Part shown: positions 7,452-26,897 of the stretch, piece after piece | Position numbering within the stretch: position 1 is the stretch's first letter | How the letters are laid out: every line of letters starts with the position of its first letter | Assembly (NCBI GenBank): GCA_003166335.1 | Contig: PMWA01000062.1 | Location: 1 to 53,668 of the forward strand | Length of the DNA: 53,668 nucleotides | Direction: 5' to 3' | Origin: Methanobacterium sp. | GTDB lineage: Archaea > Methanobacteriota > Methanobacteria > Methanobacteriales > Methanobacteriaceae | Translations under genes and position numbers: made by a program | Notes under the pieces: generated by a model | Databases searched by the model: none | Told to the model about the DNA's origin: nothing | What the model saw: the letters and a program-made list of their open reading frames with translations, nothing else

Positions 7452-8669
7452 ATGATTTTAAAAAATGAAATTGTAATTCCTAGAGGGGAAAAAGAGTATT
7501 TAGAAGTTCGTGGAATAGCTGTTAAGGGCTCTGATTTTGATATTGGAAAAGACTTGGCAGAAGTAGGAATTAAAGAGTATGAGATACAATTGGATAAATA
7601 CAAAACTCCTGTTTACGGTAAAGCTAGACAGAATTATATGAAAAGAAATTTTCCAGCTCTAGCCGAAAGGGCTCGTGGAGTGGCTGATGCATTTAAACTG
7701 GATCTAAATGAAACCAATTATGATACTACTATTTTACCTTTCGATTTGGGTGATATGGCATGTTCTGCTATTTATTTCCCTGCTTCTTTAACAGAAAATA
7801 ATCATCCTTGTGTTTGCCGAAACTTGGACTGGTATGAGGAAAGTGTTACTGAATTGGGATCAGCTTTGATGGTTATAGAAGGTAAACCATCCAGAAAATC
7901 ACTTTCTAGAATAACATCTGTGGAATTTTATCCCGAAAATGGGTATAATACTGTACAATTTGGATCGCATGATCTACTTAACCCTCCCTTGGATGGAATT
8001 AATGAAAAAGGACTTTTTGTAACCATTCTCATAGATTTACAAGGATCAACAACTCCAATGCCATTTGGAGGAGCCATAGATACAGGAATGTCTTTTTCAC
8101 AACTTACAACCATGATCCTTAATAAGTGCGCAACTGTAGAAGAAGCCAAATTTGAGATCCTGCAACAAAGAGTTTATATCCCATCTAGGGCTATGCATTT
8201 CCTTATCGGAGATAAGGACGGTAATGTAACACTTTTTGAAATTGATGGGAAATCTGGTTTATACTACTTTATAGATGGAATCCCTGAGCAACCATTTATA
8301 GTAACCAATCACTCTATGCACATGTATCCAGAACCTTCCAAATTCCCTGAATATGATCCAAAGGAAGGATACAACACATTCAATCGCTGGAATCGCCTAG
8401 ATGAATACATTAAAAAACATGAAGGTGTTTTCACCAATGAAGATATGTTCGAAGCCATGAGCTTAGTTTATTCCCATTACAAGGATTCCATAGCAGCTGG
8501 AGGATCTTTCCCATTCACAGAAAGAACTATGTACACCTATGTAGCAGATATAGCTGAAAAAACCATGGAAGTCAAATTTTATAGTAAAGACGGCCCATCA
8601 GAAGATGGAAGCGAAAACCCTTCGATTATTTTCCATGATCCTGTAACTCTAGCTTTAAACTACGAGTAA
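7452..8669 (+). CDS. Ntn-hydrolase, peptidase C45 / choloylglycine-hydrolase-like, with roughly 100-aa propeptide
   Basis: Cys104 in ..[10 protein letters not shown].. is followed by CRNLDW (R-N-x-D of linear-amide Ntn hydrolases). The N-terminal region [21 protein letters not shown] is like C45 precursors, which self-cleave before Cys near residue 103. Confidence 0.6.
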
Positions 8670-9101: not shown

Positions 9102-10592
9102 CTACCACGTTCCTATTTCAACATATTCATTTGGTTCCTCTGGAATATCTAACTCACTAAAAGAACCTGAAAGAGCATCAACGAAATCTTTATGTTTATT
9201 ATTGGGGAAATCAGTGACAACTGTGATAAAACGTTTAATCGCCCCTTCTTTACTTCCATGAAAATTAGTGATGATTTCTCCAGGTGCATTCCTATAAATA
9301 TAAATTTTATTTATTTTCGCCCAACTACCAGGCGCTTCAGCCCTATATTCTTTATCACCAGATTCTATAATTCCTTCAAAATTATAACCTGGCATCATCA
9401 AAGAATATTTTTTAACTTGACCTTTGGAAGCTTGGCCAGGATCTTGAGGTATACAATATTTTGGTTTTTTACCGCCGAGTTTGACGCTTTGAATTATATT
9501 CTTAGTTACAGTATCCTCTTCTTCCCACATTTCCTCTAAATATGTGATAAATAAACGCATATCTTGTGTTAAAGCTAATCGAACCGTTGCAGTTGCAGCT
9601 CCTCTCTGTTTTATTGGCACTTGTGGGGGATATGATGTAGCTGCAAGGTCGGACCATTGTACCTCTTGAATAATATTATCTGGTAAGTAATCAACAATTT
9701 CAAAATCTTGTTGTCTGTAAAATTTACCTTCACGTTCTTTTGGGTTTCCTTGGTGAATCGCATTAAACCTATGTTCACCCATTGTATTTTTAAGACGTTC
9801 TGCTTTTGCTTTATCAACTCGTTCATGCCATATTGGTTCTCCAGGTTCACGTCCTAATATATCATTTTCTTCAGCTAGTAATGGTAAATTTAAAACCACC
9901 CAGGTATCTTCAGGTATACTTTCTCCATTTCTAAGGAGTTTTATAGCATCTTTAGCTAATATGTACGGTTCTGCATCTAATATTTGACCTGCAAGATCAC
10001 AAATATCCAATCTTTGAGCAATATAAACCATTGCTCCAGGCATACCGTCTGTTATATCCTTTTCTACTCGTTGCAATCCGATGTTAAGATACCATTCCCA
10101 TGTTCTCTCTTGATATGTGGGTGATCGGGCTTCTTCAATGTTTTTATGAGGATCATCGATAATGAAAAGGTTTGCACCTTCACCCATAATAGGACCACCA
10201 GAACCTCCGGTGACCAATCCACCTTTATGTCCTTTTATATCCCATTTATGGGAAGCTTTACTATCATCTTTTATAAGAACATCAGATAGGAACATATCAG
10301 TTCCATAATAATGTAATAGATCTCTTGTTTCACGTCCCCATTTAGCTGCAAAACCTGCACCATAACTGGTGAGTATAGCTCTTTTTTCTAAGAATGTTCC
10401 AAGATACCAAGATAAAAAATATTTACTTATTAATTCACTTTTACCATGCCTTGGAGGCATGAAAATCATTAATCGATTTAACTTACCTTGAATTAAAAAT
10501 AATAAAAATTCAATAACTATAATTAAATGTTTAAGAGGTTTCCAACGTTTCTTAGATGCCTCAATTGCATAAGTACCCACACCATAGGGCAT
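9102..10592 (-). CDS. terL: Terminase large subunit
   Basis: Walker A-like PPRHGKSE and Walker B-like LFIIDDPH, followed by a C-terminal nuclease-sized domain. The start at MPYGVG lies 1 nt after the upstream stop; the track's longer N-terminus overlaps terS. Confidence 0.85.
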   Translation of the reverse strand: MPYGVGTYAIEASKKRWKPLKHLIIVIEFLLFLIQGKLNRLMIFMPPRHGKSELISKYFLSWYLGTFLEKRAILTSYGAGFAAKWGRETRDLLHYYGTDMFLSDVLIKDDSKASHKWDIKGHKGGLVTGGSGGPIMGEGANLFIIDDPHKNIEEARSPTYQERTWEWYLNIGLQRVEKDITDGMPGAMVYIAQRLDICDLAGQILDAEPYILAKDAIKLLRNGESIPEDTWVVLNLPLLAEENDILGREPGEPIWHERVDKAKAERLKNTMGEHRFNAIHQGNPKEREGKFYRQQDFEIVDYLPDNIIQEVQWSDLAATSYPPQVPIKQRGAATATVRLALTQDMRLFITYLEEMWEEEDTVTKNIIQSVKLGGKKPKYCIPQDPGQASKGQVKKYSLMMPGYNFEGIIESGDKEYRAEAPGSWAKINKIYIYRNAPGEIITNFHGSKEGAIKRFITVVTDFPNNKHKDFVDALSGSFSELDIPEEPNEYVEIGTW

Positions 10593-10593
10593 C

Positions 10594-11160
10594 TTACGAT
10601 TCAATTTTTTCTTCTTTTTCACTGAGGACACGCAAGACACCTAATTCCTGTTCCCTAAACTCATCAGTGCCTAATAATTCTAATGTATGCTTAAACCTAT
10701 GTTCTGATCTGACTTCAGCGTCCAACTCAATCTTAGTTATATCTTCTCCTTGAGCTGTTTTAATCATGTCCTGGGCAATTTTACCACTTTCAACTGTGAA
10801 CTTCAATAATGTCACTGGGATAAATGCCTCAGCATCTAATTTTCTATTGATTATGTCTAATTGTTTTTGAGCTACTTCTAAAGCTTTACGTCCGAACTTT
10901 TCACATAATAAATCATCTTCAACTATATCATCTGCAAGTAAATCTGACTTTTTTTCTAATGATTTTTGCTCGGTCCTTGCTCGGAACTTTGCTCGTTCTC
11001 CTTTCCAATTTTCATTAGATGCTCTTTCACCTAATGTTCCAGGACTACATCCATGAATTTTACATAGTTGTTTTTGGCTTGGGAATCTTTTTGTACCATC
11101 TTCTTCTTTTATACCTTGTATATATTGTTTTTTGATTGTTTCCCATCTATATTTGGCCAT
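10594..11160 (-). CDS. Putative terminase small subunit (N-terminal HTH)
   Basis: Sits immediately upstream of terL. It has an HTH-like segment QKQLCKIHGCSPGTLGERA followed by coiled coil. Confidence 0.45.
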   Translation of the reverse strand: MAKYRWETIKKQYIQGIKEEDGTKRFPSQKQLCKIHGCSPGTLGERASNENWKGERAKFRARTEQKSLEKKSDLLADDIVEDDLLCEKFGRKALEVAQKQLDIINRKLDAEAFIPVTLLKFTVESGKIAQDMIKTAQGEDITKIELDAEVRSEHRFKHTLELLGTDEFREQELGVLRVLSEKEEKIES

Positions 11161-12592: not shown

Positions 12593-13207
12593 TTATTTAG
12601 GGCTAGCTGTCAATAAATTTTTAACTTCAACAATACCTTGAGTGATTATATTCTGATCACCATTAGGTGCATTGGATAGTACTGATGCAAGTTTGGTTAA
12701 TAAATCTGGGTTTTCCTTTACAGTATTTGCAACATTAACTATATCCTGTAATAGTGCTGGGTTATTTTGGACTACTGCAGTGGCCTGGTTTATTATATCC
12801 TGGGCTGCTGGGGCCTGTATAGTGGCAGCTGCAGGGGCGGCGGTTTCAGCCACTGGTGTACTTGTTTCTGCTGGAGCTGTGGTTGCTTGTGTTTCAGGTG
12901 GGGTTGAATTTGCATCTGCAGGTGCAGCATTAAGGTCTACTGCTACTGTTGGATCAGTTGTTGCAGTTGTACTATCCGAATCATCATCACTATTACCTGA
13001 CGCATCTACTAATTCTTGTTCCCTATTAATCACATCATTTAAATAATCTAAAGCATCCAATTCATCTTCCACTGCTTTCACCGCTACAACTACATCATTC
13101 GGTGATGCAGCTGCTGAGATTGCGGTTACAAAATTAGCTTTAGCTGCTGCACTCATAGCAGTGTATTGTGTTTGTAATCCATCTATTTGTGTTTGAGTTA
13201 AAACCAT
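12593..13207 (-). CDS. Hypothetical protein with Ala/Thr/Pro-rich linker and conserved C-terminal NNP.LL..I.NV repeat domain
   Basis: Its C-terminal roughly 70 aa align with those of 13334-13903. The start was chosen at the second ATG, which has GGAGG 11 nt upstream. Confidence 0.55.
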   Translation of the reverse strand: MVLTQTQIDGLQTQYTAMSAAAKANFVTAISAAASPNDVVVAVKAVEDELDALDYLNDVINREQELVDASGNSDDDSDSTTATTDPTVAVDLNAAPADANSTPPETQATTAPAETSTPVAETAAPAAATIQAPAAQDIINQATAVVQNNPALLQDIVNVANTVKENPDLLTKLASVLSNAPNGDQNIITQGIVEVKNLLTASPK

Positions 13208-13333
13208 AAATATCATTCCTCCATTCTCCGTTTTATATCACTTATATATGCATCATTCACGAATTCATTAAAATCATCTTCATATTCCTTAAAAGGATTT
13301 GATTTATAAGTGGAGTTAATAACTACCAACTAA

Positions 13334-13903
13334 TCAGGCCCCAACTGGAACGGTATTATCATTTGGAATTAAATTTTTAACAGCTGCAATTCCATTACTT
13401 ATCAGATTCAAATCACCATTACTATTATTCAGGACAGTTTGCACTTGACCTAATAAGTTCTGGTCACCTGAAACGACACCTACTACATTTATTATATCAT
13501 TAAGTAATGTTGGGTTGTTTTGTACAAGGTTTATTGCCTGTGTAATTACATCATTTGGGTTTATAACAACTGGAGTTTGAACTTGTGCTGCATCACCATT
13601 ACCAGTTGTTGAACCTAGAGTTGGATCTGTTATAACAGTAGAATCTGCATCTGGAACTACCACATTATCATCTGATGCATCCCCATCAGTTACCGGTGTT
13701 TCATCAACTACTGGTGTAATCGGCAGCGCTGCTGCTAGCACTGGGGCTGCTTTCCCAACTGCTGGAGCTGTTAAGTATCCTATAATACCGGAAACTACAA
13801 CTAAACCTATATTACTATTTCCGGTGATCAAAGCTACAATTCCTATGGCAGCTATTCCACCTATTCCTATCACTTGTACAGTGTTATTTTCAAATTTTGT
13901 CAT
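13334..13903 (-). CDS. Membrane-anchored paralogue of 12593-13207
   Basis: Has an N-terminal Gly/Ile-rich TM region, a Pro/Val/Asp/Thr linker and the shared C-terminal domain. The start at MTKFEN is preceded by GGAGG. Confidence 0.55.
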   Translation of the reverse strand: MTKFENNTVQVIGIGGIAAIGIVALITGNSNIGLVVVSGIIGYLTAPAVGKAAPVLAAALPITPVVDETPVTDGDASDDNVVVPDADSTVITDPTLGSTTGNGDAAQVQTPVVINPNDVITQAINLVQNNPTLLNDIINVVGVVSGDQNLLGQVQTVLNNSNGDLNLISNGIAAVKNLIPNDNTVPVGA

Positions 13904-13942
13904 TTTTATACCTCCAAAGGTTTTATATTTTTGCAAAAATTT

Positions 13943-13958
13943 TTCATCAATTGATGAA
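13943..13958. promoter_or_regulatory. Perfect 16-bp palindrome TTCATCAATTGATGAA
   Basis: Lies about 40 nt upstream of the 13903 start. A related palindrome occurs at 14232-14251. Confidence 0.4.
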
Positions 13959-13984
13959 GTTGTTTTGATAATTTAATGAGAATT

Positions 13985-14024
13985 AAAAAAAAAGGTTTTT
14001 AAGGGTGAGAAAGTCCTTAAAACC
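13985..14024 (-). terminator. Stem-loop followed by a T9 run (minus strand)
   Basis: GGTTTTAAGG-loop-CCTTAAAAACC followed by nine T on the minus strand. Confidence 0.5.
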
Positions 14025-14231
14025 CATATCTACATCTGGAGTAAGGTAAAATAGTAGGTGGTTTGGGGATTTATCAGATGTAAGACTAAATATTAAAACC
14101 CCATAATGGCATGTAAACAGAGGTGATTAATCTCTCATACAGGGTTTTAAAAATGAGGAGGTGCTCTAAATGGCAGTAAAGAGCACTCACAAAGTGATCT
14201 AAGATCGGCTTTTTATTGCAGAAAAAGCTAT

Positions 14232-14251
14232 CTCATCAATGAATTGATGAG
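14232..14251. promoter_or_regulatory. Palindrome CTCATCAAT-GA-ATTGATGAG
   Basis: Shares the TCATCAAT/ATTGATGA arms with 13943-13958. Confidence 0.35.
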
Positions 14252-14403
14252 TTTAAACCTTCCCCGAAGGGAAGGAAAAATTTACACAATTACCTATTTT
14301 TAATGTAAAACAGGGTTTTTTAGTCATTTGATTATACAAATGCCAGTAAATTCTGTGAATTAATAATTTGGATGCACCCTTTTTTAAAAAGTGATGTATT
14401 AAA

Positions 14404-14446
14404 ACCGTCTCCAAATAAAACAGTTTTCCGACCATGAATTTATGAT
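14404..14446. repeat. Direct repeat, copy A, flanking the HNH-AP2 gene
   Basis: ACCGTCTCCAAATAAAACAGTTTTCCGACCATGAATTTATGAT matches copy B at 14935-14978 apart from a few mismatches and indels. Confidence 0.6.
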
Positions 14447-14448
14447 AT

Positions 14449-14937
14449 CTATAATTCACAAATCAACTTCTCACCTGTTAATTTATGGACGGCATTTTTA
14501 TAAGCTTCAAATGCTTTCTTTTCACCTTTTGGGGTTTTTTTAAAACTACCTAAATATTTATTTTTGCCCTTAATATTAATAACAGCACGAAATCCATTCT
14601 TACTGTTAACTACCCCAGGATATTTACTAAACCTTTCATCATGTCTATTCTGAGTATTCTGTCTTCTCGTTACGATTCTTAAATTACAGCGACGGTTGTC
14701 AAGTCCATCTCCATTAATATGATCACATTCTTGACCATCTGTAGCATTAGAAATGCATCTATGCATCCTATAATATGGTCTAGGTTTTTTAGAACGACTT
14801 CCATTTCTACATGCATAATATACATTATTAGAATCTTTTTTAGCAAACCATTTATATTGGTTTAAAAAATTAAAGTCTTCATCATCGACTAAAGCAATTT
14901 TATCCTGTGTTAATGAAATTTCTTTAACTATTTTACC
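14449..14937 (-). CDS. HNH endonuclease with one AP2 domain; no canonical start codon for the full-length frame
   Basis: DHINGDGLDNRRCNLRIV (HNH) and YPGV...GFRAVI..KGK.KYLGSF....EA..AY (AP2). The frame stays open upstream of the track's internal ATG at 14766 and aligns with the N-terminus of the 20526-21242 paralogue. GGT occupies the position where that paralogue has ATG. Confidence 0.6.
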   Translation of the reverse strand, partial: GKIVKEISLTQDKIALVDDEDFNFLNQYKWFAKKDSNNVYYACRNGSRSKKPRPYYRMHRCISNATDGQECDHINGDGLDNRRCNLRIVTRRQNTQNRHDERFSKYPGVVNSKNGFRAVINIKGKNKYLGSFKKTPKGEKKAFEAYKNAVHKLTGEKLICEL

Positions 14938-14978
14938 GCCTCCTAAATAAAACAGTTTCCTAACCGTGAATTTTTGAT
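14935..14978. repeat. Direct repeat, copy B, flanking the HNH-AP2 gene
   Basis: See 14404-14446. Copy B overlaps the GGAGG and the first codons of the HNH frame. Confidence 0.6.
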
Positions 14979-15092
14979 TAAAACTTTTAAAAGTTTAGGG
15001 GATAGGAAAAAAGATGTTGAGCGAGTAGTAAAAAAAAACCTATCCCCCTTATATGGTGATTCAATTGAAGAAACTCGTAAGTTCCGTCAAAG

Positions 15093-15551
15093 TCAATTCT
15101 TTTGTATAAATACTTTCTTCTGATTTTTGGGTTCAGTGTCATAGAAATTCAAATGCCAAGGATATATAATATCATTGTCAGCAGGTCCTGCGAGTACCAA
15201 TCCACAGCTTTTACAAACAGTGTTGCCATGTTTATATATTTCTTCAAATTCTGTTCCATTACAATCTGGGCAGTGGTCTTTAGTTACGAGGTAATAAGGA
15301 TTTATTATGGTTATTTTATCATAAGCTACCAGCATGGGGCTTCCATATATTTTCAATGTGCAATTAGTACAGCTTCTTATAATGCCCTTTTTAGTCATCT
15401 GTTCTTCACAATCGGGGCATTCCTTATTTAACACTTTTTTTAACCATTCATGGTTATATTTAAAGTGATGTTTAGGTTTGTTTCCAACTGTTTGCATTCC
15501 ACCATGTCCAAGGGGTGTAATGTCCCCCTTTAATTTTGATAAGCTTATCAT
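15093..15551 (-). CDS. Double zinc-ribbon protein; the C-terminal ribbon is TFIIB/TFB-type
   Basis: CPDCNGTEFEEIYKHGNTVCKSCGLVLAGP matches the TFB N-terminal ribbon pattern CP.CG......D...GE.VC..CGLV. An additional CPDC...CTNC ribbon lies upstream. Confidence 0.6.
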   Translation of the reverse strand: MISLSKLKGDITPLGHGGMQTVGNKPKHHFKYNHEWLKKVLNKECPDCEEQMTKKGIIRSCTNCTLKIYGSPMLVAYDKITIINPYYLVTKDHCPDCNGTEFEEIYKHGNTVCKSCGLVLAGPADNDIIYPWHLNFYDTEPKNQKKVFIQKN

Positions 15552-15558
15552 GAGAAAA

Positions 15559-16029
15559 CTACATCAACATTGAACTGTTCTTTACTTTCTCTGTAGGACA
15601 CAGTGGGGATAAGTATATATTGGTCTGGAATTGAGCAGCCAAGCGTGTAACAATCATAGAATAAGTGGAAAGGGTTAAATCATTCTCCCTACATACTTTA
15701 TATCTATGTATCTGGCTAGTTTTGCAATTATGATAATAACATTTCACATAAAAAGCAATAGCAATTACAATTGTCTGCCATTTACAACGCTTACATAAAT
15801 CATTCAAACTATCCAAATTTTTAATGATATGTCTAATCCTTTTTCTGTGATTCTTTATATTCAACTCCTCAGCGACATAATTAACATAATTCAACCGTTC
15901 ATATAACCTCTGCTGCTGTTTCGCATCTTCTTGAAGTTTTTTAGATTCCCCTTTTTGTGGATTTTTATATAAATTTAATAACATACCTACAGGTCTTCCC
16001 GGATCTGTATTACAATCTATCATAATCAC
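15559..16029 (-). CDS. Possible single cyclin-fold (TFB core-like) protein
   Basis: RLNYVNYVAEELNI....R.RI..II ... TIVIAIAFYVKCYYHNCKTSQIHRYKVCRENDLTLSTYSMIVTRLA resembles one TFB cyclin repeat. The similarity was judged by eye only. Confidence 0.3.
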   Translation of the reverse strand: MIMIDCNTDPGRPVGMLLNLYKNPQKGESKKLQEDAKQQQRLYERLNYVNYVAEELNIKNHRKRIRHIIKNLDSLNDLCKRCKWQTIVIAIAFYVKCYYHNCKTSQIHRYKVCRENDLTLSTYSMIVTRLAAQFQTNIYLSPLCPTEKVKNSSMLM

Positions 16030-16050
16030 CGCCCCTAAAGAAATTAGATT

Positions 16051-16731
16051 TTAACCTTCTAATGGAATAGTAATTTTTTGAACTGTACTTTCCTGATCGA
16101 TATGGAGTTTAACTAAGCTTTTCAAATGATTCGGCAATGTTTCATATAAGTCCAATAATGATTTTTGCTGAGGAAAATCAGCTTTTAAGATATTATCCTC
16201 AGGATCTATCGTTATCAAGGCAGCATTGATAAGACTTGGTAATAATTCAGTGATAAGGAGAATTTGAGTAGTAGTCTTAGGAGTATTTTCAGGATCTGCA
16301 TAAGTTCTATGGTCTGGTGTATTTGCAACTGTTTTTGGTGATTCAATAGGTCTATTTTTAGACTTAATTTCTTCAACTGGTTTTGAAATTTCTTCCGCGA
16401 CAGTTTTTCCAGGTAAAGTATAATAATTTTTATTACCATCTCTACGGACATTTAAAAGTTTATTATCAATTAGAAACGCTGTTAACTTTTGAATATAACC
16501 TACTGGCTTGTCAATCTGGCTTTTAATCAAGCTTGTAATTATTTCATCATATTCACCGAATAAAGGTTTTAATTTAACATCAAATAAATTCCTGAATTCC
16601 CTTTCCTTACACTCCATACACGTTTCCCAATTAGATTTTTTAACTCCACCACAAATCGGACATTCCTGAGGATTTAATTCTTTTCCCACATTTTCCACCT
16701 CTGAATTATTTACTTCTTTTTTATTAACCAT
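16051..16731 (-). CDS. Zinc-ribbon plus winged-helix-like DNA-binding protein
   Basis: CPICGG...CMEC, then GYIQKLTAFLIDNKLLNVRRDGNKNYYTL. The start was moved to MVNKKE to avoid overlapping the upstream ORF. Confidence 0.45.
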   Translation of the reverse strand: MVNKKEVNNSEVENVGKELNPQECPICGGVKKSNWETCMECKEREFRNLFDVKLKPLFGEYDEIITSLIKSQIDKPVGYIQKLTAFLIDNKLLNVRRDGNKNYYTLPGKTVAEEISKPVEEIKSKNRPIESPKTVANTPDHRTYADPENTPKTTTQILLITELLPSLINAALITIDPEDNILKADFPQQKSLLDLYETLPNHLKSLVKLHIDQESTVQKITIPLEG

Positions 16732-16756
16732 TGACTTGATTATATTCCTATTCTTT

Positions 16757-17014
16757 TTACTTTCCAAAAAATGAAGTCCATCTCGCGCCAATATTAACAC
16801 TTCCCTTAGTATAACCCCTTACAGCTAAAATCCAGAATATAATATATAAAAAAACAAGATTCCATGAATTTGATAAATAAGTCTGCAATATAATTAATGG
16901 ATTGCTGCAACACCACACTAAAAAACCTGCTTTATTACCTTCAGCTATCCAATAAGCACCTAAAAGAGATAAAAAAGACGCAAACCAAAATAAAAATAAA
17001 CTAAAATTAATCAT
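16757..17014 (-). CDS. Small 3-TM membrane protein
   Basis: Three hydrophobic segments in 85 aa. Confidence 0.45.
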   Translation of the reverse strand: MINFSLFLFWFASFLSLLGAYWIAEGNKAGFLVWCCSNPLIILQTYLSNSWNLVFLYIIFWILAVRGYTKGSVNIGARWTSFFGK

Positions 17015-19864: not shown

Positions 19865-19940
19865 GTGAATTCCTTTACTATTTTGTCTTGTTTTTTTCCG
19901 TCCCGTTTCAATACCTCCTTAATTTTTAATTAAAATATAA

Positions 19941-20010
19941 GCCAGTAGGGAATCGAACCCCCGTTTCTCGGTTACAGGCCGAGCACATCACCAAACTATG
20001 TTATACAGGC
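19941..20010 (-). tRNA. tRNA-like element, non-canonical (anticodon position reads TGT)
   Basis: Has a D arm ACAT/ATGT with GG in the loop, an anticodon stem CTCGG/CCGAG and a T loop TTCGATT. The T stem has only 3 clean bp, the acceptor stem has a T-T mismatch, and position 33 is C. It is either a pseudogene or affected by homopolymer miscalls. Confidence 0.35.
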
Positions 20011-20023
20011 AATGAATTTAGGA

Positions 20024-20340: not shown

Positions 20341-20538
20341 TTAACCACCTCCAATACTTGCGAGTGTCATTAATTCAAAGCTCCAGATTATGATCGCAGC
20401 CCACATAACAATTAATAATGCTAAAATGATAATTGCAGGTCTGGCTGTGAAATAATCATAAGCTTGGATGTAAGGATCTTTCTGGCGTGGTCTGAGTAAA
20501 TCTGCTCGTCTTCGTGTTCGTTCACTCATTTCAAACAT
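20341..20538 (-). CDS. Small membrane protein
   Basis: Hydrophobic segment IIILALLIVMWAAIIIW. Confidence 0.4.
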   Translation of the reverse strand: MFEMSERTRRRADLLRPRQKDPYIQAYDYFTARPAIIILALLIVMWAAIIIWSFELMTLASIGGG

Positions 20539-21242
20539 CTCCTCATAGATTTAATTACATCAGAATCTAAAATTCCAATATACCTTTCTTGAATTATTTC
20601 ACTAATTTTCACAGCTTTTTTAATATAAGCTAATGAAGCAGCTTCTTCTGACTTAAAATAACCCAGATTTTTACTTTTTTTATTAATCGTGATATGAACC
20701 TGCCATTTTTGAACATTCTTATTCCAACTAACCCCCTTAAATCGACTTGTGAAATTGGGTTTTTTAATAATAACCTTTTCCCCATTTATAAGGGCATTAT
20801 ATGCATTTTGATATTCTGCTTGGGCTTCTTTCGATGTGTTAAAACGTCCTAACCAATATTTCTTATTATCATATTGAACTTGAGAAATCCACTTTCCTGT
20901 TTGTTTACAAAAACAAACACCAGGATATTGACTGCTTCGTGGATGGTGCCTATTTTGACCATTTTCATTACCCGTAACAATTCTAAGATTTTCCCTTCGA
21001 TTATCCAACCCATTTCCATTAATATGATCGACTTGTTTCAATTTATGCGGATTTAAAATAAGTCTATGTAACAGAATATGCCCATTTCCATACCTTTTAC
21101 GGGCATATTTTAAATTATCAGGTCGTTTACGGTCATGGTGTAAATGCCATTTCTGGTTTTTAATTTTTTCATAATCTTCTGCATCGATTAAAGTGAAGTC
21201 TAGGCCGTTACTCAAAGGAAAAAAATATGTAACATTTTTCAT
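20526..21242 (-). CDS. HNH endonuclease with two AP2 domains (homing-endonuclease-like)
   Basis: DHINGNGLDNRRENLRIV plus two YPGV/FKGV...W.....K...LG.F...EA..AY modules. Confidence 0.8.
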   Translation of the reverse strand: MKNVTYFFPLSNGLDFTLIDAEDYEKIKNQKWHLHHDRKRPDNLKYARKRYGNGHILLHRLILNPHKLKQVDHINGNGLDNRRENLRIVTGNENGQNRHHPRSSQYPGVCFCKQTGKWISQVQYDNKKYWLGRFNTSKEAQAEYQNAYNALINGEKVIIKKPNFTSRFKGVSWNKNVQKWQVHITINKKSKNLGYFKSEEAASLAYIKKAVKISEIIQERYIGILDSDVIKSMRRCLK

Positions 21243-24653: not shown

Positions 24654-25787
24654 TTATTTTCGTTTCTCATCTTCCCTATGTGCTTTAAGTATTTTATTTT
24701 CTCTTTCAAGTTTATTCATCCTTTCCTCAAGCTTCTTAACTTTTTCGTCAGTGAGATCATGAACTTCTACTTTACCATAAATCGTTACTTCATCCATATT
24801 TCGATAGTAACGTTTCTTTAAATCTTCGTAGTCATCTTTTAAATATCGTTGTCCAGTGTCATCCTGAATCTCATGACCCATCAAAATCCGTGTTTCAAGA
24901 TAACCAAGGTCTGTTTTTTTTAATTGATTTCCAAACCATTTTCTTAAATTATGTGGTCTGAAATATATATACCCATTTGCACTAATAGGGAACTGGCATA
25001 TTCCATTCAAACGCCTGAAATATACATTTACAGTTAATTTATGCATCTCCCTATCTTTTGGGTTTCGGAATAAAAAAGTATCTTCTTCCGGTTTTTTTGG
25101 TGGTTGATGGTGTAAGTATGCTAATATATAATCCAAGCTCTCAGGTGTTGAAAAACATGTGTGAAATTGCCTATTTTTCTGCATCTGGTAGTGCCAGGTG
25201 AGAGGTCCTATTTGTTCTGGGACTTTTTGGATTACATGATCCATATCAGTTAATTCATTTACATCGATTTTAATATATTCACTTATACAATCGACAAAAT
25301 TTTTTAACCTTAAATTTCTACAATCACCCTGCCTCATCCCACTACTGGCCATTAAAATAATCATAGCTTGATATTTTACATTCGCAAAGCTTAACGCCCT
25401 TTTAATATCATCTATGTTAGGGAGGTCTATTAACTCTTCATGAACTGCTGTTTTTAGGGGTCTTCGCTGGTATGGTGGTAATTCTATTGAATTCAAAGTG
25501 TAAAATGCCCTTATGATTTTGATTGAATTCTTGATGTGAAGTTCTGAATATTTTTGGTCTTCAAGGTAGAGTTCAAAGTCATCCAAGTGGTCATTTATAC
25601 TTCTACGTTTAAGACGTATCCTGTTTTCTTCTTCGTCATCAGCTTCTTTAATAGCTTCTGTTGGTGTTAAGCCAGTTGCTTTATAATATTTTTGGAAATG
25701 ATAAATATATATCCGTTGCGTTGATTCTACAACATGTCTTTTACGGAAATATTTTAATAACAATGGATCCTTATCTATATTATTCAC
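24654..25787 (-). CDS. int: Tyrosine recombinase / phage integrase
   Basis: ASSGMRQGD (catalytic R), HNLRKWF (H..R) and LMGH......QRY (H and nucleophile Y) in the C-terminal domain, with an N-terminal SAM-like domain. Confidence 0.85.
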   Translation of the reverse strand: MNNIDKDPLLLKYFRKRHVVESTQRIYIYHFQKYYKATGLTPTEAIKEADDEEENRIRLKRRSINDHLDDFELYLEDQKYSELHIKNSIKIIRAFYTLNSIELPPYQRRPLKTAVHEELIDLPNIDDIKRALSFANVKYQAMIILMASSGMRQGDCRNLRLKNFVDCISEYIKIDVNELTDMDHVIQKVPEQIGPLTWHYQMQKNRQFHTCFSTPESLDYILAYLHHQPPKKPEEDTFLFRNPKDREMHKLTVNVYFRRLNGICQFPISANGYIYFRPHNLRKWFGNQLKKTDLGYLETRILMGHEIQDDTGQRYLKDDYEDLKKRYYRNMDEVTIYGKVEVHDLTDEKVKKLEERMNKLERENKILKAHREDEKRK

Positions 25788-26823: not shown

Positions 26824-26897
26824 GCCTCGGTGGCTTAGTCCGGTATAGCGCGGGATTCGTAATCCTGAGGTCGCGGGTTCAATTCCCGCCCGAGGCT
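26824..26897 (+). tRNA. tRNA-Thr (anticodon CGT)
   Basis: Acceptor GCCTCGG/CCGAGGC, D arm GCTT..AGC, anticodon arm CGGGA-TTCGTAA-TCCTG, T arm GCGGG-TTCAATT-CCCGC. No encoded CCA. Confidence 0.9.

Follow-up and report, generated by a model that had tools for sequence, protein, structure and literature searches.

A conserved string of hairpins ahead of the late genes of a methanogen provirus: a candidate viral RNA with anti-Shine-Dalgarno-like words

What is the non-coding stretch that precedes the late genes of a tailed provirus in the methanogen Methanobacterium sp.? The window analyzed here is the entire public contig PMWA01000062.1 (53,668 bp), the provirus lies on its minus strand, and a preliminary description of the locus had regarded positions 13937-14448 as a stem-rich candidate viral non-coding RNA (ncRNA). 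We found that the element, which spans about 14345-13985 on the minus strand and comprises about ten hairpins in total, is structured, devoid of coding potential, conserved with compensatory changes and linked to the late operon, and that its relatives and itself are enriched in one word that matches the 3' tail of the 16S rRNA. It represents a candidate family of viral RNAs, narrowly distributed and not described before. A functional structured RNA of minus sense, be it free-standing or a leader, is a likely interpretation of these data; the fuller proposal of a self-contained minus-strand RNA with an anti-Shine-Dalgarno (anti-SD) action on the late ribosome-binding sites (RBSs) is more tentative, and as a whole mechanism we place it somewhat below an even chance.

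Hairpins, conservation and lack of coding potential

The region 13980-14290 gave folding z-scores of −4.35 on the minus strand and −4.45 on the plus strand, none of 100 shuffled sequences being equally stable, and the extended 363-nt version (14347-13985) gave −5.6 and −3.2, respectively. All seven stems of the preliminary description were recovered at their positions, both in the sequence and in the minimum free energy (MFE) fold, and its view of a non-coding, highly structured segment agrees with the z-scores of −4.4 to −5.6. Its boundaries needed correction, since positions 14328-14448 are not conserved in relatives and three further hairpins, H(-1), H0 and H4, had been missed. Similarly, the higher GC content that it had noticed (36-37% at 14000-14300) is real in comparison with the immediate flanks (27-30%) only, and not with the neighbouring gene, which reaches 45% at 13600-13800.

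The element is non-coding. The longest open reading frames (ORFs) within it have 34 and 68 codons, both with GTG starts, and among copies that are at least 99% identical the element has gained or lost a single nucleotide in seven places and has a 3-nt insertion in another (at 14301, 14283, 14241, 14230, 14218, 14118, 14106 and 14081); the flanking genes of the near-identical copies show one 6-nt indel only, which is in frame. Because of the 1-nt indels among near-identical copies, the element is not a protein gene, and the earlier statement that no credible ORF is present stands.

No known RNA family was matched either in the Rfam check that had been suggested. The scan of the whole window with Rfam 15 at the gathering threshold returned two tRNAs only, the scan of the element at E-values up to 10 returned chance matches only (17-20 bits versus thresholds of 42-96), and the scan of seven homologous loci at E-values up to 0.1 returned no match; the element was also without match in the INPHARED phage DNA search. 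The Rfam match to the C/D-box model snoR160 at 14419-14479 (E = 8.9; 18.6 bits versus a gathering threshold of 42) was treated as chance. A reading of UGAUGA as a C/D-box small RNA (sRNA) or k-turn was rejected, this word occurring only in perfectly paired stems (those of H2 and of the downstream palindrome P1). Regarding the likeness of ATTAAAACCCCATAATGGCATGTAAAC to a CRISPR repeat, no array was found on the contig and TTAAAACCC is not enriched. Finally, our literature search found no paper on a structured ncRNA in a tailed virus of methanogens.

Homologues were searched for by anchoring first on TerL, the large terminase subunit, and then on the neighbouring proteins (the HNH fragment and the 189-amino-acid (aa) late protein). 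In the TerL relatives (76%, 57% and 51% identity; loci L001, L002, L006 and L009), the element was not seen by BLAST or pattern, because recombination moves the module separately from TerL. With the neighbouring proteins, dozens of contigs in JGI, ENA and Logan assemblies proved to encode exact copies of the HNH fragment and of the 189-aa late protein, and the element on them is 99.6-100% identical to that of the window; it is present on no fewer than 20 public contigs, which come from several sample series. The homologues of the 189-aa late protein are few, and their contigs are L032 (81% identity), L033 (47%), L034 and L038 (43%); L036 is the sole addition from the metagenome pattern scan and the viral scans, and none of the contigs anchored on a paralogue extended to the element. 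The diverged copies thus gathered precede homologues of the first late gene at 81%, 47%, 43% and about 50% protein identity.

A string of stable hairpins stands before the late gene, in the same orientation, in all diverged homologues, with z-scores of −4.7 to −6.3, except in L034 (−1.7). The differences between the modules of the various lineages are too great for a single covariance model: L033 keeps H2, H3, H5, H7 and H8 and is devoid of H1 and H6; L036 retains H6, H7 and H8, its H5 being of another kind; L038 shares H5 and otherwise has different hairpins. Conservation and covariation in related viruses, on which the preliminary description had staked its case, were nevertheless found, for H7, H5, H6 and H(-1). 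First, hairpin H7 (14028..14086) comprises 10 pairs, of which six changed on both sides, with 92.9% of the positions paired, values that no shuffle out of 500 reached in a control that leaves the phylogenetic signal in. When the partners are slid, pairing falls to about 40%, and RNAalifold unaided predicts the H7 helix. Its conserved 36-nt loop is kept even in L034, where the stem is wholly different. Second, the stem of H5 (GUGCUCU-UUACUGCCAUUU-AGAGCAC, 14157..14189) becomes GUGCCCU/AGGGCAC in L038, a change from U-A to C-G on both sides, and is replaced by an unrelated stem, AGUAUUGUC/GRCAAUACU, in L034 and L036, UGCCA being kept in the H5 loop of all lineages. The idea that this UGCCA loop mimics a tRNA anticodon or a CCA end was dropped, since the loop geometry is not conserved. 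Third, H6 (14093..14150), which consists of a 15-bp outer stem and a GAGA/UCUC inner stem, has 19 pairs that are 98.9% paired in five variants, and is also present in L036; on the minus sense, two adjacent pairs alternate between U.G and C-G and between G.U and A-U. Fourth, the arms of H(-1) (CAUUUG-UAUAAU-CAAAUG, 14325..14342) vary and yet remain complementary, from CAUUUG/CAAAUG in the window to CAUUG/CAAUG in L023, CAUAA/UUAUG in L030 and CAUUGA/UCAAUG in L034.

The other hairpins behave in keeping with their predicted pairing. H0 (CCUGUUUU-ACAUUA-AAAAUAGG, 14293..14314, seen in the MFE fold) has lost one A and carries A14295G in L021 and L023, where it still folds as CCC.GUUUUA/UAAAAU.GGG, and its G.U pair is retained in all variants. 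H1 (CCUUCCC-UUCG-GGGAAGG, 14258..14275) is present in the window-like variants and absent from L033, L036 and L038. H2 (CUCAUCAA-UUCA-UUGAUGAG, 14232..14251), a TCATCA..TGATGA palindrome, keeps its stem around a spacer of 6 nt in the window, 5 nt in L023 and 7 nt in L033. The variants of H3 (GCUUUUU-CUGCAAU-AAAAAGC, 14208..14228) have loop changes only (+AUA, U to A), the stem being lengthened to 9 bp in L033. The small H4 (GAUC-UUA-GAUC, 14196..14206, also from the MFE fold) is weak and degenerate in L033. Of the 15 changes seen among the close variants, about 10 affect predicted loops or bulges, and one change in a stem converts U.G to C-G. From these compensatory substitutions, as seen in alignments that were partly guided by eye, the element is most likely a conserved structured RNA.

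Sense strand, ends and linkage to the late operon

As to the strand, the preliminary description had favoured the minus sense, and our data point the same way, making the minus strand the probable sense strand. The wobble pairs in the conserved H0, H5', H6 and H7 turn into A.C mismatches on the plus strand, H1 closes on a cUUCGg tetraloop on the minus strand only, as had been noticed, a conserved hairpin is followed by U6-U9, and the neighbouring genes are co-oriented.

The 3' end of the RNA would most likely be the U9 tract at 13993-13985 (A9 at 13985-13993 on the plus strand), which directly follows hairpin H8 (GGGUUUUAAGG..CCUUAAAAACC, 13994-14025), so that the T9 run formerly seen behind the last hairpin is indeed there. 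Taking an oligo-U end as at least five U, the window has nine, and L032, L033, L034 and L036 have U6-U8 there; the H8 stem with its U6-U9 is kept in these four loci with a variable loop, and L038 ends with a different GC-rich hairpin followed by AUUUUAUU. The 5' end is less sharply placed. In five unrelated upstream contexts (window/L026, L023, L030, L034 and L036), the first hairpin is preceded at a distance of 15-25 nt by a TATA-like octamer, and in the window this box, TTATTAAT (14359..14366, minus strand), may be the promoter, T1, from which transcription is predicted to start within H(-1), about 6 nt in. The other candidate, T2, is the box TTAAAAAT(A) at 14303-14295, which would set the RNA start at about 14273, at the foot of H1. 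This is the TATA-like box of the preliminary description; it is present, but the TTAAAAATA box is doubtful as a promoter because it is the 3' arm of the conserved hairpin H0 and because conservation and pairing reach about 14345. With these ends, the RNA would be 290-360 nt long.

The T5-T9 runs that follow several of the hairpins on the minus strand could also be taken to mean that the element is a passive cluster of terminators, or a 3' untranslated region (3' UTR), which insulates the late genes from early transcription and whose RNA is functionless. The upstream genes are co-directional in the window, L023, L030 and L038, as this explanation would have it. Archaeal termination, however, requires U-tracts only, and the ten hairpins, the conserved UGCCA and 36-nt H7 loops and the CACCU enrichment (see below) exceed what insulation needs. 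Furthermore, the gene upstream of the element is divergent in L033, from which it follows that in this locus the element is not simply a 3' UTR, and that it needs its own promoter there if transcribed in the minus sense. We regard the passive cluster as quite improbable.

The element belongs to the late operon, and not to the HNH-AP2 endonuclease gene (14449 to about 14932) that lies directly upstream of the non-coding stretch, as judged from the breakpoints of recombinants and from the relatives that keep the element without the HNH gene. Locus L011 (IMG/VR UViG_3300048041_000145) shares with the window a 4.1-kb block (12916-16999) at 98.8% identity, with only two differing positions from 13779 to 16995, both in the element, whereas the TerL genes are only about 65% identical in DNA; therefore, the module moves by recombination between distinct viruses. 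The recombinants L023, L030 and L026 are unlike the window upstream of about 14327-14368 and near-identical to it from there to the ATG of the late gene. A 44-nt direct repeat (14978-14935 and 14446-14404, 84% identity) stands on either side of the HNH gene, and five loci that keep the element, namely L023, L030, L033, L036 and L038, do not have this gene. It looks like a recent homing-type insertion, and the partnership between the RNA and the HNH-AP2 endonuclease that had been envisaged finds no place in these data. This gene has no ATG, GTG or TTG start; its full-length frame runs from an ATA (about 14932) located after AGGAGG and 7 nt, and the public gene calls retain only the 105-aa C-terminal part.

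In all seven lineages, the element stands directly upstream of the first late gene and is co-directional with it, with no breakpoints in between. What follows the element is also common to all, namely TTCATCA-(2 or 6 nt)-TGATGAA, AAAATATAAA, GGAGGT and ATG. In the window, these are the palindrome P1 (TTCATCA-AT-TGATGAA, 13943..13958), with the same arms as H2, and the conserved AAAATATAAAACC with the Shine-Dalgarno (SD) sequence GGAGGT (13915-13910) and the ATG (13903-13901) of the first late gene (13901..13934, minus strand). P1 is found in all seven lineages with a spacer of 2 nt (AT or GC), or 6 nt in L038. Between U9 and P1 lies the A/T box CATTAAATTATC (13967..13978, minus strand), a possible late promoter outside the RNA, and similar boxes sit 5-16 nt upstream of P1 in L033, L034, L036 and L038. 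Both palindromes of the preliminary description (13943-13958 and 14232-14251) exist, but they do not frame the element, as one is H2, inside it, and the other is P1, downstream of U9.

These palindromes, which are perfect and present their TCATCA/TGATGA arms twice, 290 bp apart, bring up the possibility that the conserved object is a DNA site: a replication origin, a packaging or cos-related site, or a protein-binding region, with CACCT iterons and TCATCA..TGATGA operators at two promoters. Such a site would account for the high folding z-scores on both strands, for the CACCT words being direct repeats in one orientation, and for the position between the replication/early and packaging/late modules, next to an HNH gene, as in those cos phages that use HNH proteins together with terminase. 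It is ill matched by the H7 arms, which covary across a 36-nt conserved spacer, by the G.U-type changes, which fit one strand, and by the TCATCA-palindrome spacers of 2, 5, 6 and 7 nt, which are unfit for dimer operators of fixed geometry. The distances between the CACCT words vary (38 and 67 nt in the window; 7 and about 60 nt in L038), and no skew inflection was seen beyond the local G excess. For an iteron-type origin in particular, CACCT repeats do exist, and none of the genes was recognized as that of an initiator. The HNH gene is dispensable and the gene of the small terminase subunit (TerS) is 2.8 kb away, for which reasons a cos/pac site beside HNH was rejected as the leading interpretation. 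Altogether, we hold a DNA-level site to be improbable.

The main rival to a self-contained RNA is a terminated leader of the late operon, that is, a transcription gate like the lambda pR'-6S RNA-tR' unit. In this case, the sole late promoter would lie upstream of the hairpins, polymerase would stop at H8-U9 with the structured RNA as a by-product, and read-through would depend on a viral factor (such as the TFB-zinc-ribbon protein) or on the leader RNA itself (as with HK022 put); the anti-SD motifs may also mask the first late RBS in cis. The invariable co-directional position before the first late gene, with no breakpoints between them in seven lineages, and the conserved hairpin and U-tract just ahead of the late genes are what a leader calls for, and a gene for a TFIIB-type zinc-ribbon protein lies upstream in the window, L002, L006, L023 and L038. 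Moreover, in L001 and L002, a structured region of about 200 nt with CACCUCC is the only room for a late promoter and, with no clear U-tract, it resembles a 5' leader. The position before the late genes and these short versions are fitted equally well by a leader. Conversely, the conserved A/T box, palindrome and AAAATATAAA between U9 and ATG resemble a separate promoter/operator, and L034 tolerates between H8 and P1 a 150-nt insertion with more T-runs. A U9 tract is expected to be a strong stop for the archaeal RNA polymerase, and we know of no description of processive antitermination in archaeal viruses. No Q-like or other known antiterminator was found, the upstream genes being those of the HNH endonuclease and the TFIIB zinc-ribbon protein. 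We thus view the leader as possible, though rather unlikely.

The L034 insertion (about 352-505) stands between the H8 U-tract and P1, is flanked by the direct repeat AGTAATACTTTT and contains its own small hairpin. The shorter structured regions of L001 (5249-5452) and L002 (863-1071; z = −4.8, one long hairpin) occupy the same genomic position as the element and share with that of the window the words GCACCUCC and UAUCACCUACC, with no BLAST similarity; they may be distantly homologous to its core.

Anti-Shine-Dalgarno-like words and proposed mode of action

The intergenic regions ahead of the late genes of eight loci (window, L033, L034, L036, L038, L001, L002 and L006) were scanned without bias for 5-mers and 6-mers on the sense strand. 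Among the 5-mers, CACCT ranked first, with 15 copies observed versus 1.5 expected (p = 6e-11), or versus 2.2 when the expectation comes from a first-order model built on the elements themselves; CACCTC led the 6-mers, with 9 copies versus 0.26. Some of these copies are mutually homologous, so that the p-values overstate independence. The antisense strand has 0-1 copies of either word. CACCT also occurs in the pre-late intergenic regions of L001 and L002, and in L002 CCUCCU forms a hexaloop.

The 3' end of the archaeal 16S rRNA is AUCACCUCCU (PMC7531240), and CACCU(C/A) matches this anti-SD tail. The instances of the motif are GCACCUCCU, (U/A)AUCACCUC and CCACCUAC. In the window, motif 1 is CACCUCC in the 3' flank of H5 (14163-14157), motif 2 is in the apical loop of H6 (AUUAAUCAC-CUCU, 14128-14119) and motif 3 is CCACCUAC in the H7 loop (14061-14054); in the predicted fold, CACCUCC, AUCACCUCU and CCACCUAC are exposed, in a linker, in the H6 apical loop and in the H7 loop, respectively. 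The genes of the provirus have GGAGGT and GGTGAT as RBSs. The exposed anti-SD-like words, of which there are two or three CACCU(C/A) copies per element, and their enrichment provide the RBS-complementary sequence that characterizes anti-RBS sRNAs.

From these observations, we propose that the virus encodes in the element an RNA gene, which lies on the minus strand in the direction of the other viral genes and whose transcription would start at one of the two TATA-like boxes (about 14366-14359 or 14303-14296) and end at H8 and U9 (13993-13985). The product, 290-360 nt long, would be modular, with eight to ten hairpins strung together that are independent of one another and act as a stable scaffold displaying conserved single-stranded sequences, chiefly two or three copies of CACCU(C/A), and the UGCCA loop. 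The RNA would pair with GGAGGU/GGUGAU RBSs, its first targets being those of the late operon, which lies 80 nt downstream behind a putative promoter of its own and P1, thereby holding back or timing late protein synthesis. On a bolder and less likely reading, it would be a mimic of the 16S tail that either times the virus's own late proteins or acts as a competitor of host ribosomes on SD-led mRNAs, and the core GCACCUCC and AUCACCU in a hairpin would be common even to relatives whose elements cannot be aligned.

Several observations weigh against this proposal or parts of it. Regarding the RNA itself, neither the MFE of the whole element nor automatic wobble counts separate the strands, each candidate TATA box predicts a start a few bases within the next hairpin, and the internal U5 tracts could stop transcripts early. 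Regarding the structure, the lineages number about six, covariation was formally tested for one helix, and the H7 shuffles retain phylogenetic signal, as said above. Regarding the action, L033, L034 and L036 have one CACCU motif each, the antisense target search and duplex scan within the window found no outstanding specific target, and the strict position before the late operon speaks for a trans-acting RNA no more than for a leader acting in cis. The antisense candidates that did appear were discarded: one is an identity of 15 nt in the same sense (14057-14043 versus 7726-7740), the other a match in the host pheS that is due to chance. Finally, motif 1 read on the other strand is a good SD followed by an ATG.

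This last point raises the question of a plus-strand micro-ORF, MAVKSTHKVI (14171-14203), in which GGAGGTG is followed 6 nt on by ATGGCA, and which would encode a leader-like peptide on a divergent transcript. An SD, a spacer and an ATG do recur in L033 (MAIKSTHSLI), L038, L002 (MVVCHIINDC) and L001 (MVEYTIIRGG) as in the window, with a spacing of 6-8 nt and 10 codons in four of the five ORFs, on a plus strand that is G-rich. In L038, however, the frame stops right after Met-Ala, in L034 and L036 the SD is missing and TTG replaces ATG, and the peptides are unrelated between groups, while the H5 stem and loop account for the conserved bases. The plus strand also has A.C mismatches in H6, H0 and H5', and its hairpins have no U-tract. 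The ten-codon ORF probably arises incidentally from the H5 hairpin and the anti-SD word, and we deem a functional peptide very improbable.

Located right at the early-late junction, the element is a defined candidate, both conserved and widespread. If transcribed, it would offer a direct experimental handle on the control of late genes in archaeal Caudoviricetes, which could operate by termination and read-through by the archaeal RNA polymerase or by RBS masking; mimicry of the 16S tail, if true, would offer a concise and testable concept of how viruses control SD-dependent translation in archaea.

Provirus setting and known counterparts

In minus-strand order, the provirus has the integrase gene (24654-25787), the early genes, the gene of the TFIIB-type zinc-ribbon protein (15093-15551), the HNH-AP2 gene, the non-coding stretch with the element, genes of small membrane proteins (from 13903), the TerS-like gene (10594-11160) and the TerL gene (9102-10640). 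The first two late proteins (13334-13903 and 12593-13216, minus strand) are paralogues that have in common, after an N-terminal hydrophobic segment and a low-complexity linker, the C-terminal motif VQNNPxLLxDIxNV...GDxNxIxxGIxxVKNL, for which Pfam and PHROG gave no function. A second HNH_3 and AP2 endonuclease gene lies at 20526-21242 (minus strand). A tRNA-Thr(TGT) within the provirus (19939-20011, minus strand) has a weak score (41 bits) and mismatches in its acceptor and T arms, and the host tRNA-Thr(CGT) (26824-26897), which adjoins the integrase end, is a possible attachment site. A 78-bp tandem repeat (2211-2501; 3.9 copies, 75% matches) occurs within a 342-aa minus-strand ORF (1939-2967), and a plus-strand 405-aa ORF (7452-8669) sits amid the minus-strand structural module; the 15-nt identity of the latter (7726-7740) to the H7 loop (14057-14043) is probably due to chance. 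The host part of the window encodes an archaeal-type PheRS alpha subunit and a 2-oxoacid:ferredoxin oxidoreductase, and the organisms named for the TerL relatives are Methanobacterium and Methanobrevibacter.

Among known systems, phi29 pRNA is similarly a structured viral RNA near packaging genes, and a packaging RNA was one of the roles first imagined for the element. Nothing points there: no pRNA model was matched in Rfam, the virus has a terminase (TerL and a TerS-like gene) in place of a phi29-type motor, its TerS gene lies 2.8 kb from the element, and no pair of complementary loops was seen.

The lambda pR'-6S RNA-tR' unit, through which Q mediates read-through, is closer in layout, being also a short, terminated, co-directional unit between the regulatory/early block and the late genes, with a late leader that ends at a hairpin and a U-tract; in HK022 put, the stem-loops of the leader RNA themselves act. 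The element differs from both by its archaeal host and RNA polymerase, by having no Q homologue and no sequence or Rfam kinship to them, by its greater length, ten hairpins and conserved loops, and by the promoter-like block between its terminator and the late genes.

With respect to the proposed action, anti-RBS sRNAs are known in a methanogen, namely sRNA154 and sRNA41 of Methanosarcina mazei (PMC5867862). These intergenic RNAs expose a sequence complementary to RBSs and mask them, also inside polycistronic mRNAs (PMC5867862). They are chromosomal, shorter, nitrogen-regulated and experimentally shown, whereas the element, a candidate, is viral, larger, multi-hairpin and provided with 8-nt words resembling the 16S tail. 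A new class of archaeal-virus ncRNA, in which a multi-hairpin scaffold with several copies of the 16S tail would control translation initiation, is a speculative extension, which we think unlikely on present data.

The general design has bacterial parallels in Staphylococcus aureus RNAIII, with its C-rich loops, and in CsrB and RsmZ, with their GGA decoys, which likewise show a short SD- or anti-SD-related repeat on many independent hairpins. They have no homology to the element, which has no known partner protein. CsrB traps a protein by mimicking the SD; the element would mimic the anti-SD.

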